Below are positions 613 through 62,411 of a stretch of 64,000 nucleotides of DNA, one piece after another. The DNA is from Eledone cirrhosa (Eukaryota). Position 1 is the stretch's first letter, and every line of letters begins with the position of its first letter. Location of the stretch: positions 380,122,001 through 380,186,000 of the forward strand of contig OZ024741.1 of the NCBI GenBank assembly GCA_964016885.1. Direction: 5' to 3'. Both the position numbers and the translations under genes were made by a program. The notes under the pieces were generated by a model. That model saw nothing but the letters and a program-made list of their open reading frames with translations, was not told where the DNA came from and ran no database searches.

Positions 613-908
613 TTATATATATATATGTATAAGTATATATATATATATGTATATATATGTATATATATATATATATATATATATATATATATATATATTT
701 CGTTTCTGAATTTGTTTAGCAGGATTCTTTATCTGAAAACGTGTGTTGAAACCGATATTGTTATACTTTGGGTGGGTCATGTTGCCAATAAGAAACACAC
801 GCACCAGTTCCTTTCACTTCAATTTATTATAATAAATTTATAAATTTAGGAATTTATAAATTTCCGGTTGGTTGGTTGGTTTCACAACCAGATGGTTGTT
901 TATATATT

Positions 909-951
909 GTCAAAGTTCTTTCGTCACACATTCTGTGACCTCTTCAGTGAC
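909..951 (-). ncRNA. Minimal hammerhead ribozyme
   Basis: Minus strand GTCA-CTGAAGA-G-GTCACA(gaatg)TGTGAC-GAAA-GAAC-TT-TGAC; stems I and II pair. Confidence 0.75.
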
Positions 952-1082
952 TGGGGATTCTTTTCTTTGTTTTTTTGCGCCCCTCCTTTGTTCTGTCCGC
1001 CGTCATCTTGTTTTGTGGCGTAGGACAGAACAAAGGAGAGGCACAACAACCAAAAAAACCAAAAAAAAACAAAAGAATCCCA

Positions 1083-1125
1083 GTCACTGAAGAGGTCACA
1101 GAATGTGCGACAAAAGAACTTTGAC
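1083..1125 (+). ncRNA. Hammerhead ribozyme copy with core mutation (GAAA to AAAA)
   Basis: Mirror of 909-951 with G12 to A change and a stem II mismatch. Confidence 0.6.
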
Positions 1126-1611
1126 AATATATAAACAACCATCTGGTTGTGGAGCCAACCAACCAACCGGAAATTTATAAATTCCTAAATTTATAAATTT
1201 ATTATAATAAATTGAAGTTAAAACTTGGTGCGTGTGTTTCTTATTGGCAACATGACCCTCCCAAAGTATATATATATATATATATATATATATATATATA
1301 TATATATATATATAGGCTAGATTAGATGCGTTCATAATACAACTATATAAGACATATTCAAAGCTCGAATGTGATCTTTTTATCCACAGTAAAATTGTCA
1401 AAAAACAGTTCAATATGTAACTTTCCAATCATAGTAGTTTTACAATGTCACAAAGCATATATCAAATGATTAAATAAATAACCAAGATTTAAAACATTAT
1501 TTAATAGATTTCCACGCGTATCATTCAAATACAGAAAGATGTAGCGTTTTAAAAACAGAAAAACAGACTACTAAATATATTTTCCGTGCTGTTTCCAATT
1601 CAACTTTTTCT

Positions 1612-1974
1612 CTATAATCACTGTTTTATATGGAACTGTACTCCCTTTTGAAATATATATATATATATATATATATATATATATAACGAAGGAATTGTGG
1701 TACGGAACCAGATGGACCATAACGCACCAGAGTACTCAATACTTAGGGTAGTAGAGTGGGTAATAGGAAAAAGTATGACCCCGACGGCGGAGCTCAAGCC
1801 GTTTCGACGGCTATTTCTGGACTCAGAAATATTTATGTCCAGAAATAGCCGTCGAAACGGCTTGAGCTCTGCCGTCGGGGTCATACTTTTTCCTACATAT
1901 ATATATATATATATATATATATATATATATATATTTGAAAAGGGAGTAAGGTTCCATATAAAACAGTGATTATA
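1612..1974. repeat. ~41-bp inverted repeat facing inward around a (TA)n tract
   Basis: tataatcactgttttatatggaactgtactcccttttgaaa (1613-1653) vs reverse complement at 1934-1974. Confidence 0.85.
1686..1894. mobile_element. Head-to-head PLE 3'-end insertion, family B, with half-hammerhead
   Basis: 1765-1822 inverted vs 1837-1894; GAAA-CGGC..GCCG-TC-GGGG (stem III plus GUC site); related copies 8371-8510 and 19165-19355. Confidence 0.8.
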
Positions 1975-57913: not shown

Positions 57914-58756
57914 TAAGTTTATTTAAAATGGAAGTGAGATATGGATTTGGCAACTTGCCTCAATTCTAAAACTGAGATCTTCAGAAGTTGTCCACACTTA
58001 AAATCACATGTCCTTTCCAGCTAATATAAACACACCTACGAATACTCAACCATTCTGAGCTTCCTCTTTAAAAATTAATTCTTCCACTCAATACCCACAT
58101 CATCGCTTTATGAACACGTACATTTTACCCAGTTTGAGTTATAAACATGTACGTTTTACTACAACCCTTATATACAATTATCTCCCAGTTGTTTATTTAA
58201 TTTATCTTCTTTATACCCTTACCCATTTTCTGTCATATTTTTAACACATACACACCCTCCACCTTCATTCTGTCCACTTCTCTTAACCCTTTCCTTTCTC
58301 ACTACCCATATTACTTTATGAACACATACATTTTACCCATATCGATTCATAAGCACATCCATTTTACCAGAAACATTATACACAATTATTTCTCACCTGT
58401 TTACACAATGTCTTTTCAAAACCTAACTTCACATACTCTCGCTTCCTTCCAGACTCTACTACTTACATCAACACTAACACACAGACACACTCCCATCTAC
58501 ACATAAATACACGCCGTAGCTTCCGCCATCCCCACCCAGATTCTGATCCCCCCCACTATTTCTCCGCCCTCTCCACCTTCACCTGTCCCTATACCCTACC
58601 ACACCCTACCATCGCGAAGCTATACACCCCATACATCCGCTTTATTTTCCCTTTTTTTAATTCTGTTTTATCTATTTTTATTTTCCCTTTTTCTCGTGTT
58701 CTTGTTAACTTCCCTACTTACTACCGTCCTTACTCAATCTCGGAGTTCCTCTCAAC

Positions 58757-58792
58757 TTTCCTGATGAAGGACTTGAATCCGAAACGTCGAAA
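58757..58792 (+). ncRNA. Minimal PLE-type hammerhead ribozyme
   Basis: TTTC-CTGATGA-A-GGA(cttgaa)TCC-GAAA-CG-TC-GAAA. Confidence 0.8.
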
Positions 58793-59018
58793 TCTCTTTT
58801 ACTACCCCTAACCGTCAACCTAATACAACTATGTACAATTGACTTTGCGTTTGTTTGTTCTTTTCAACTATATTTATATATGTATATATATATATATATA
58901 TATATATATATATATATATATATATATATATATATATATATATATATATATATATATATATATATATATATATATATATATATATATATATATATACATA
59001 TATATATATATATATATA

Positions 59019-62000
59019 ATGAAAGATTGAAGAAGAACATGGTCGGCTGAACAAAAATGGTTTATTTCAAGTATTAAGTCTAAAGGCTGCTAATCACTCG
59101 AATTTCCGTCACTCGACCTTAAATACGGTGTTTACCTCTGATCAAATAATCGGAATACTGGAGGTTTTACATATGACATTGGTATATATAGATACAACGG
59201 AAGGCCTATCATTACGATAAAGGACACGCTAATAACACAGAGGAATTTACTACGGGAAAATACGGATTTAAATCCTGCAAAAATCCACCGAATAATCCCC
59301 ATATTGATACCTTTGAACTCGACCTCATGAACATGATAAATGAATCCGAATTCAAAAAAAGTACGCATTACAACAAACTGCAAAACGACATCAATCAATG
59401 CACAGTTGAAGAAACTACGCATCACCAACGCTATTATGGTAAAAGCGGATAAAAGATCAAACGTAAACACCATGAGCCTTATCACATACAATAACTTTAT
59501 ACGCCGTGAACTACACAAAAAATACAAGAAAACTACAGAATCTACACTCACTAGCATTAATAAGGAACGTCTTAGCATAGTAAAAAACTGAAAATATCTG
59601 ATAGAACCGAGCCTCTAACCCCTTGTAACCCCACATTTAACCCGAAGGATCATAAAAATAATTTCAGACCCCACAATTAGATTAATATGCCCATCGAAGT
59701 CGGATATAGGTACACTTAGCAATATATACTAGATAGAGTAATAGCACAAATAAAGTACAAACTATTAATTAAGCTATGGGGTAACACTAACGAAGCAATA
59801 GATTGGTTCAGCAAAATAGACAGTAGGGAAACATCCAACTTCGTACAGTTTGACATCAATGACTACTACTCCTCCATCTCCCTAGTCACCCTAGATAAAG
59901 CGCTAACCTTTTCCCAGAAAAACATGGACCTAACCTCTGATGAAATTAGAATAATAGTAGCTGCTAGGAAAACTATTATTAGATTCGAAAATAGTTACTG
60001 GGAACGAAAAAAGAGACAGAATAACTTCGATATCACTATGGGATCTAGCGACTCAGCACAGCTAACAGACATAGTTAAAATATATATAGCGTATAATTTA
60101 CATAAGGAATTTAATAACCTCCAATGAACAATTTTTAGAGACGACACACTCCTTTTAGCTAAACACTTAAATAATCAAAACATGGAAAGATTACGGAAAA
60201 ACATCAGTGTCTTCTTCAACAAACTAGGCCTAGGTACCACTTTCGAACTTAACTCTAAAAAAGCAAACGTCTTAGATCTAACGCTCAAATTAAACACAGG
60301 ATTAATAGAGCCCTTCCATAAAAATAACGAAAATCTAGCCTACATTAGTTATAACTCAAACCCCTCGCTCCATAATTAACTCCATAGCACATAGTATATC
60401 CCTCAGAATATCCCGCCTATATTCTAACCTAGAGATTTTTAACGAACACGCAAACTACTATAAGATAGCTTTACATAAGGCAGGCCATAAGGAGTGGTTC
60501 AAATATATACCAGATAGAAACAGCAACAACAAACCTAACGACAGCTACACTACCCACACCTATAGGAATAGCAAACATAGAACTAAACATAGAAATAGAC
60601 AACGAGCACCAGAAATAACTGAACCGAATACTAATATAGGGAGCCCTAGGAACTATAGAAAATCCACATATAGGAAATAATTATGATTCAATCCAATATT
60701 CAACTCCTATATAAAAACCAAACTACCTACTACATTCTTTAAGATATTTGACAAACACTTCCTTAAACTACACAAATACCATAGAATCTTTAACAACCTA
60801 CGAACACACACCATAGCACCAAATACAAAATGCAAACACATAACAATACCACAACCACACACACATCGGGGCGCATCGCAACAAAACATCAATAAGCCTA
60901 CATATCAGCCCATCCATAATAACATGCATAACCGCAACGGAGATCCTGCACACAGGAAAGCCTCCAACTGTAATTGCCACTTGCCGGATAAGTGCTCACT
61001 ACAAAATAGATATCTAGATTCAAGTATGGTGTACCTGTGTACTATAAATTCAGGTAAATTTACATGGCACTACATAGGTTCCACGGCTGGGGAATTCACA
61101 AAAAGATGGTACGTTCACAGAGACTCTATGAATAACCGTAGACTAGAGAACTCAACAGCGCTGGCCAATCAAATCTGGCAGCTTAAGAAAAAACCAGGAA
61201 TATGGGATTAGCTGGTCGAAATTATCGGGAGCAAGGGCCTACGAAAATGGAATGTCCAACTGCGGACTTTGCAATATCGAGCTGTTCCATGTTTTAAAGT
61301 ATGATAAAATGCTGCTTAACAGCAAAATAGAACGATCAGTTTTCTGTAGGCACAAATCAGCTACCAAGGTCGCAAATTTCAAACCAACATGATTCAATCC
61401 AGCAATCTCAGATTTCATGCCGAACCACCTGAATTTTAATGTACTGACTATATACCACCCCACTGTTATTAACTATCAACTAACCAACTGGTCACTAAAT
61501 CAACAAGATAAATCTCCTAACCTTCCTTCACTCAGCTCCCTAAGGACAGATCACCCCCATTAAGATAAAACAATTAGCCTGCGAAATATTTAACACACAC
61601 ATATATCAAAACTCTCCCTCTCAATGTTTATTCTCTATCTACCTATCTACTCCTTCCCCGTCCTCAGCCCTACACCTTATGTTTCATCTTCGTATCTCTT
61701 CCCCTCTCACTTAATTTTTAATTTATTATTATTTTATCTTTTATCTGACATTTGTTACAATTTTTTTTTTCTACTCTAACCCTCTGAGATTTGACCACTA
61801 CGTATGTATGTATTCAATGCTTCTTTTCATATATAGTATTATCTCTACCCTCATCACGTCTTTACACATACACTTACTCACCACTGTAACTTTAATCACC
61901 AGCACCACCACTACTATTATCATCAATCGTATTCTGTACTTGTTACTTTTTAATTATATTTCACATCTATATCATTTTCATTCTAACCTCTTTACTTATT

Positions 62001-62411
62001 TATTATAATATATATTGAGGTTATTGTTTTGATTCTCCGTTGTATCTATATATATATACCAATGCCATATGTAAAACCTCCAGTATTCCGATGATTTAAT
62101 CAGAGGTTAACACTAATTTAAGGTCGAATGACGCAACTTCGAGTGATTAGCGGCCTTTAGACTCACCTGATCAATGAAACAATTGTTAATACTTGAAATA
62201 AACCCTTTTTTGTACAGCCAACCATGTTATTCTTCAATCTTTCACTATTATTGCTCCAAGAATAACAACCTGCATAGGAAATCTCGCGAACTCGCTACCT
62301 AACTATGGGAACCTCTTGTTGGGTCAAACAATGCCGTACGTTAAAACGATCCACAATGCAGAGTACTCACAACCTCTAACTGGATTACCTATAACGATAA
62401 CTTGTTATCCC
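59019..62411 (+). mobile_element. Long PLE insertion (family I) with inverted terminal copy 59019-59201 of 62037-62244 and ~165-nt tail
   Basis: Inverted repeat visible; (TA)n both sides; decayed ORF inside. Confidence 0.85.
59340..61392 (+). pseudogene. PLE RT plus C-terminal GIY-YIG ORF (stops and frameshifts)
   Basis: VKADK, KDHK, FVQFDINDYYSSI, FDITMGSSDSA, FRDD, CNC..C, MVY..HYIGST, TALANQIWQLK, CGLCNIE, CRH. Confidence 0.9.

Follow-up and report, generated by a model that had tools for sequence, protein, structure and literature searches.

Penelope-like elements (PLEs) that carry an endonuclease (EN+ PLEs) insert in a characteristic layout, in which partial tandem copies serve as pseudo-long terminal repeats (pLTRs), an inverted and 5'-truncated copy lies head to head with the element, and palindromes mark the junctions (Craig et al., 2021, PMC8557442; Arkhipova et al., 2013, PMC3846280; all papers are cited here for part of their text). 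The same two papers describe a preference for (TA)n in Hydra and Naiad and a microsatellite bias in Neptune, as well as a tail that is optional, 30-40 bp long and often present at one end only, which may be either end. The head-to-head layout with its optional tail also occurs in PLEs with ordinary target-site duplications (PMC3846280), and the origin of the inverted structures and of the microsatellite preference is named as an open question (PMC8557442). For the Poseidon element PAc, reverse transcription in vitro was found to start at two internal sites that bound the tail, and both strands of AT-rich targets were nicked and extended (Frangieh et al., 2024, PMC11167929). In this study, we analyzed a stretch of 64,000 nt from Eledone cirrhosa (assembly GCA_964016885.1, 3.0 Gb; contig OZ024741.1:380,122,001-380,186,000), hereafter the window, in which nine families of PLE-type inserts lie in (TA)n, and compared these inserts to others in the same genome. 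The main result is that each family has one long (L) and one short (S) outer end, and that head-to-head inserts follow a near-strict rule by which one arm ends at L and the other at S.

The families in the window are named A (inserts at 698, 25218 and 31283), B (1686, 19166), C (8888), D (24826), E (35276), F (36184), G (40980), H (46378) and I (59019), with a tenth family, C2, related to C; the stretch between L and S is called the tail. In total, 368 loci of this genome were collected, consisting of 240 targeted loci, 28 extensions and 100 evenly spaced 10-kb stretches that represent an unbiased sample of 1 Mb. The targeted loci are the best 30 matches for each of eight queries and are therefore biased toward query-like copies: long S arms were favoured by the F query and long L arms by the query for E and the first one for A, while inserts with two S ends are invisible to tail queries but visible in the random sample. 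A script chained BLAST hits into inserts, cut the chains at TA runs and dropped duplicates by flank similarity. This yielded 596 scored items genome-wide and 123 items in the random 1 Mb, with roughly 40% of the scored items being unresolved or fragmentary. The family G set (35 items) was scored before the final 38 loci joined, and the figures for family I rest on 16 items.

Genome-wide, the outer ends of each family fall at two discrete sites that lie 33-163 nt apart, with tail lengths of 57 nt in A, 77 nt in B, 33 nt in C, about 139 nt in D, about 41 nt in E, about 87 nt in F, about 38 nt in G, 67 nt in H and 163 nt in I. The S ends sit at TA-like stretches of 2-7 nt, and a motif common to L and S was seen in A (AATAT^CG) and in G (TCATAT), where tandem copies show the sequence beyond L. 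An earlier interpretation made from the letters of the window (the sequence-only reading) had placed the end of the shorter arm about 40-165 nt upstream of the other, usually at a TA-like motif, in agreement with these figures. It had also claimed that independent inserts of A and B reuse both endpoints within a few nucleotides. Of the window inserts, the A insert at 698 has its S end 7 nt inside the family S site, and the H insert at 46378 has its short-arm end 18 nt inside that of its own family. In the random loci, 114 of 137 L or S ends adjoin (TA)n, as compared to 5.6% of the sampled background positions (7958/142700) and 8 of 189 ends of a short interspersed element (SINE). The association of the ends with (TA)n is thus stronger than chance would give. 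The SINE-like control is an abundant repeat of about 190 nt that is not TA-associated and is found in the window at 2974-3147, 7437-7627, 14778-14967, 16190-16378, 39265-39457 and 48925-49056.

Head-to-head inserts with both ends at L or S account for 237 of the 596 items. They comprise 229 LS, seven LL and one SS insert, as compared to about 118 LS inserts expected under independent choice of ends. The partner arm measures only 8-27 nt in 18 of the 229 LS inserts, and the sole SS insert rests on an 8-nt match. The 123 items of the random sample divide into 40 LS, no LL, no SS, 23 single-armed, 39 unresolved and 21 fragments; the number of single-armed items is somewhat too high, diverged S ends having been missed, and the unresolved class includes long LS inserts (loci L336 and L332). 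Two-armed inserts are the largest resolved class in this sample, but to call two-primer integration the default, as had been done, overstates such counts, and the young family G contains about 10 two-armed and 11 single-armed inserts. Family G has a tandem template in which both sites are internal, and it follows the same L+S rule. Arms that end at S occur also alone, up to full length (L232). The L+S pairing is real and, as a pattern, well supported.

Each insert derives from one event, as indicated by the subfamily variants that its two arms share. At subfamily-diagnostic sites the arms agree in 266 of 278 cases in A and 240 of 245 in B (96-98%), as compared to 57% and 52%, respectively, for shuffled arm pairs (maximum 73% in 1000 shuffles); this concordance speaks for the same subfamily, not for the same RNA molecule. 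The median divergence between arms is about 4%, and private variants common to both arms are rare (6/106 in A, 2/41 in B), so that the arms are neither assembly duplicates nor strongly homogenized. Two separate insertions into one TA array could be imagined because the density of TA runs is very high (the random 1 Mb contains 1712 that measure 12 bp or more) and different families do stack in one array. We reject this explanation, and likewise an assembly artefact, as having next to no probability: under the chaining rule no TA run lies at the junctions, the pairing is 229:7:1, the subfamily concordance is high, and the arms, unlike duplicated reads, differ from each other. No contig covering the insert within 24990-25600, where repeats were skipped, and, among the pieces listed, none spanning the G junction was found, which carries no weight either way.

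The layout, the L+S pairing, the single-event origin and the independent inner ends are observed. To account for them, we favour a mechanism, suggested by the structure of the inserts, in which both nicked target strands prime on one RNA, one at L and one at S, and the two complementary DNAs (cDNAs) are joined end to end; we assign it a probability of about 0.55. The endonuclease of one protein-RNA complex would nick both strands of (TA)n, and each TA-ending 3' end would pair over a few bases with one of two AU-rich start sites. Each of the two sites would serve one time on one RNA, so that L+S, but neither LL nor SS, would arise without further rules. Both cDNAs would extend toward the RNA 5' end, with many pairs reaching one fixed 5' end, and overlapping arms would form if the trailing cDNA displaces the leading one or if a tandem template is used. 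Host end joining would close the centre, and extension of a single primer would leave a single-armed insert. The strict version, fixed-site twin priming in which one complex uses each programmed site of a single RNA exactly once, one per nicked strand, has in our judgement about even odds. If true, the inverted pLTR and the one-sided tail would be direct first-strand products at both target ends, and the rule would span Neptune-type, Hydra-type and retrozyme-like templates, as a mode of target-primed reverse transcription without an element-encoded second-strand step.

The sequence-only reading had already proposed two primers, and in this respect the programmed ends, the single event, the L+S pairing and the arm lengths, which fit better than under fold-back of the first cDNA, support it; between RNA and folded-back cDNA as the second template, the data do not decide. 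Its further suggestion that the self-complementarity of (TA)n is the cause is unsupported, since PLEs that have ordinary target-site duplications are on record with this layout too (PMC3846280).

In the fold-back explanation, a single cDNA begun at L folds over at its 3' end and is copied as DNA; microhomology or a nick by the endonuclease lets the second target end join at S, with loss of the tail flap, and later central deletions make the arms unequal. Self-priming of this kind was proposed in PMC3846280 and resolution mediated by the endonuclease in PMC8557442. We consider it possible but unlikely. It accounts directly for L+S and for the lack of S+S, for the subfamily variants common to both arms and for the identical extra bases on both arms at some centres (L020, L094, L323), but it predicts that the L arm is ahead at birth. 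A comparison of the two arms in 196 simple LS inserts shows the S arm extending inward beyond the L arm by more than 10 nt in 68, the L arm beyond the S arm in 45, and the two within 10 nt of each other in 83; in 15 inserts the L arm stops at or before S. At base resolution in B, where 39 of 69 LS inserts could be anchored, L is ahead by at least 3 nt in 6, S is ahead in 13 and the arms stop within 2 nt in 20, such that 33 of the 39 junctions break the L-ahead rule. Extreme asymmetry was seen in A (L094, L 855 and S 2466 nt; L109, L 149 and S >3480 nt with an internal gap). Simple fold-back does not predict that S arms often extend beyond L arms, as they do also in young inserts. S-longer inserts occur at below 1% divergence (e.g., L353, L 288 and S 1118 nt at 0.8% arm divergence), and the correlation between asymmetry and age is not significant (A, rho 0.19, p 0.27; B, rho 0.03). 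In a set of 70 inserts, the 18 with arm divergence of at most 1.5% include 4 with S longer, 8 with L longer and 6 equal, and the 23 older than 4% include 6, 8 and 9, respectively. In addition, S is a direct start site of reverse transcription in vitro in another PLE (PMC11167929). Fold-back would require a rapid and symmetric central deletion, which is compatible with the genomic data.

Several observations weigh against priming by two strands on one RNA. Seven LL inserts exist, and the 83 near-symmetric inserts, as well as the correlated inner ends in A (rho 0.57), are predicted by fold-back too; in A, the inserts with the highest symmetry belong to those with the lowest divergence. Central deletion of palindromes could generate an S>L asymmetry soon after insertion. 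In the pooled histogram, L arms show no sharp pile-up at S, contrary to possible blocking on one RNA. An extra C, which may be a signature of the RNA cap, was scored behind the stop site in B; among the arms that do not run on with the templated base it is present in 16 of 21 L arms and 7 of 18 S arms, but many of these cases are explained by the partner arm. Some junctions recur, in eight F and two E inserts, and may reflect re-insertion of existing palindromes. For PAc in vitro, the top strand and the bottom strand were not seen to differ in start site, and the part of the paper cited here does not give the pairing per molecule (PMC11167929).

A variant of the mechanism would use two primers and two RNAs of the same source element in a dimeric complex, with an asymmetry of the dimer or of the cut assigning L and S. 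Strand displacement would then be unnecessary for arm overlaps of up to 1.3 kb, PAc is predicted to form a dimer (PMC11167929), the subfamily concordance is expected if one master is active at a time, and the discordant sites (12/278 in A, 5/245 in B) find a place. We nevertheless regard it as improbable, as an extra rule is needed against LL and SS, and the correlated inner ends and the shared extra bases at the centres fit one RNA better. In seven A loci (L014, L028, L031, L060, L095, L102, L104), moreover, the second arm resumes about 50 nt or less from the stop of the first. At the E locus L349 the second arm starts about 200 nt from the first stop. Such cases may resemble L1 twin priming or may result from a deletion within one arm.

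The inner ends range from 28 to 3480 in A, and many arm pairs share one stop position per family (A, about 308-325; B, 133-146; C2, 210-214; E, about 230-243). The stop in B lies in what we take to be initiator-like sequence, and that in A just upstream of a presumed YY1-like motif, which suggests a candidate transcription start. Almost no symmetric inserts were found in G, which has a tandem template without a fixed end. At the 196 junctions, the BLAST overlap is at least 2 nt in 69, an apparent microhomology, whereas 53 are blunt or overlap by 1 nt and 74 contain inserted bases (1-10 in 49, more than 10 in 25). Short repeated copies of nearby sequence were present at several junctions; such templated repeats resemble polymerase-theta end joining.

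A few junctions were found repeatedly. The F junction 127/150 occurs in eight de-duplicated inserts of both polarities on several chromosomes, including one LL insert, and is enriched because the query held this junction; the E junction 241/190 occurs twice, and of the centres in the 39 anchored B inserts, one is found 3 times and two others 2 times each. The recurrent F junction may represent a hot spot or the re-insertion of a palindromic copy. In the latter case, a palindromic insert would be transcribed by read-through and re-inserted in one pass, with junction and ends copied. As an account of more than a minority of inserts this is very improbable, given that most junctions are unique and that private variants are rarely found in both arms.

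The clade names of the elements rest on motifs. Translation of the long A copy L091 shows a family open reading frame (ORF) with a reverse transcriptase (RT) domain followed by a C-terminal GIY-YIG domain, a linker CIDKKCIIC (CX4CxxC) and two Cys between the GIY-like and YIG motifs. The E frame is open through RT and endonuclease (EN) and contains the two Cys, but its Cys-rich linker matches the CX2-5CxxC pattern less exactly. By these motifs, A and E appear to be of the Neptune/Nematis type (C-terminal EN, CX2-5CxxC linker, CCHH), within which Neptune and Nematis are not separable. The E family, as represented by L355 and other loci, is young; its copies show 96-99% likeness, and in the 1.6 kb examined the RT-EN frame is open. 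Translation of I gives CNCHLPDKC, CGLC and CRH, which match the CxCX5C linker, CxxC and CxH, and no CCHH, so that I would fit the Hydra clade. For B and F, tblastn gives a link to I-like frames, with the B ORF linkage in L331, L332 and L336, and RT/EN evidence for C and H consists of fragments; B, F and H are accordingly assigned to Hydra by similarity to I or by fragments only, and for D the linkage to a PLE frame is not proven. A Naiad affiliation was rejected, since EN follows RT in A, E and I and is not N-terminal. Likewise rejected was a miniature inverted-repeat transposable element (MITE) or other DNA transposon, the arms being unequal and the ORFs those of RT and GIY-YIG. Partial tandems of the pLTR type were seen in A, where copies L062, L078 and L232 run past L into the ORF start, and in I, with the order inverted pLTR, body, pLTR, tail. 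Searches against Pfam gave no significant match for three window fragments.

That the inserts form a PLE system, as previously proposed, is borne out by these RT and GIY-YIG frames, except that G is not autonomous. It consists of a non-coding tandem unit with a period of 613 nt and no ORF (L309), and is retrozyme-like, likely moved by PLE proteins. Family G (40980-42008; L301-L330) is very young, with at least 41 matches at 100% over 81 nt and with PLE-type L and S ends. A candidate hammerhead core-like motif was matched by pattern in A and C2 only, and visual inspection shows part of it in G; no hammerhead is among the Rfam matches, which are spurious microRNA and snoRNA entries below threshold.

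In the window, self-BLAST and direct reading show all inserts listed here as inverted arms between (TA)n runs with the element 3' ends facing outward, and the terminal 150-700 nt of the nine families have no BLAST similarity to one another, which confirms that nine unrelated families lie in (TA)n in this orientation; the sole cross-family match is between C and C2. The Neptune-type A insert at 698-1266 has its L arm at 698-1014 and its S arm at 1016-1266. Two other A inserts are located at 31283-31679 (L arm, reference positions 1-128; S arm, 58-320) and at 25218-25306, a mini-insert with non-overlapping arms (S arm, 58-104; L arm, 1-53), as had been noted before. The Hydra-type B inserts have the L arm left and the S arm right at 1686-1895, where both arms stop near the family hot spot, and the S arm left and the L arm right at 19166-19354. 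The C insert at 8888-11622 (S arm 8888-10173, L arm 10174-11622) has arms that are 97% identical, and its L arm holds the end of a GIY-YIG frame. The D insert at 24826-25177 is non-overlapping, with an L arm consisting of the tail only (24826-24968) and an S arm at 24968-25177; a second D copy is located at 30541-30862 with its L end at 30541. The young Neptune-type E insert at 35276-35537 has its S arm left and L arm right, and in the F insert at 36184-36373 the S arm covers reference positions 87-150 and the L arm 1-127, a junction common to other loci. In the retrozyme-like G insert (40980-42008), the L arm is a partial tandem of the 613-nt unit (40980-41560), followed by the S arm (41561-42008). 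The H insert at 46378-47681 contains a short inverted arm (46378-46523) and an L arm with a piece of a decayed Hydra-like ORF. Family I is represented by a near-full-length Hydra-type PLE at 59019-62411, with an inverted S arm (59019-59201) and a decayed RT and GIY-YIG body followed by the pLTR and a 163-nt tail up to 62411.

Single-armed copies are also present in the window. An F copy that ends at S (33620-35184, plus strand) includes a Hydra-like RT fragment and has TA on both sides, while single L arms of C (7978-8370) and B (8371-8510) lie tail to tail at 7978-8510. A single L arm of C2 occupies 47687-48275 (plus strand), with a second C2 copy at 41-613.

Outside the inserts, host flanks are duplicated in inverted orientation around TA-embedded inserts at 1613-1652/1935-1974 and 24731-24807/25341-25413 and were not found elsewhere in the loci. 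Inverted duplication of the outer flanks was seen at 3 of 183 LS inserts as compared to 3 of 408 plain TA runs, and is thus not insertion-specific. An 80-nt inverted pair at 37170-37249/37654-37733, 97.5% alike and not TA-flanked, surrounds a GIY-YIG-like fragment and is possibly another PLE or an inversion of a long interspersed element (LINE). Two AT-rich imperfect palindromes (38631-38821, 48688-48901) are old (69-76%) and have no copies among the loci fetched. Fragments of non-LTR elements with an RT frame, presumably L1/Tx1-like, are located at 3900-5200, 13000-14000 and 50800-51840, and another non-LTR element, decayed and presumably Dong/R4-like, shows RT together with a motif of a restriction-like endonuclease at 49960-50340 and 52490-55630. 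Elsewhere in the genome, an interrupted (TA)n array of about 6 kb adjoins a B S end (L333, G000:C4:207996000-208003000).

With about 40 two-armed inserts per Mb from ten families, the genome is a large natural record of the reaction. The inserts are a source of short palindromes, which annotators may mislabel as MITEs or microRNA hairpins. If the proposed mechanism is true, the tail, the inverted pLTR and the extension of both strands would be joined in one mechanism, in the retroelements closest to telomerase. The pairing rule (229/237) would predict for the in vitro system that the two strands of one target use different start sites of the same RNA; family E, young and with an open RT-EN frame, is a candidate for such work.

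In other respects, both the elements and the way they are laid out are ordinary for PLEs. The layout, the TA targeting, the one-sided tail, the two start sites and the extension of both strands are already in print, and the last two are not new here since they were shown in vitro for PAc (PMC11167929). What we add is the near-strict L+S rule with independent arm lengths, which we did not find in print: end pairing is not addressed in the cited parts of the retrozyme preprint (bioRxiv 10.64898/2026.07.22.740005) or PMC13282606, and neither a count of end pairing nor an application of twin priming to PLEs was found in the literature covered, which excluded most subscription papers, older Penelope structure papers and supplements. 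Family I has the motifs described for the Hydra clade, namely a C-terminal GIY-YIG domain without CCHH, a CxCX5C linker, CxxC and CxH, together with (TA)n insertion (PMC8557442), and B, F and H are placed there by likeness to I or by fragments. Family G resembles the animal non-LTR retrozymes in its short, non-coding tandem monomer, with a candidate and partial hammerhead-like core, but shows the L+S layout, whereas the words palindrome and priming do not occur in the main text of the preprint (bioRxiv 10.64898/2026.07.22.740005). The PAc start sites lie in an AC-rich stem-loop without target homology (PMC11167929), whereas the S ends described here sit at TA-like stretches. Compared to the canonical EN+ PLE layout, the tails are 33-163 nt long, the pairing has been counted and either arm may be the longer. 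In L1 twin priming, reportedly described by Ostertag and Kazazian in 2001, two target ends are said to give two cDNAs joined head to head, with a variable internal site near the stop of the first cDNA, non-overlapping arms and the status of a minority event. Two head-to-head cDNAs would be common to both systems, and the 15 non-overlapping cases among the 196 inserts look the same as those of L1. The inserts differ from L1-type twin priming as such, since the internal site is fixed at S, most arms overlap, and two-armed inserts form the largest resolved class.

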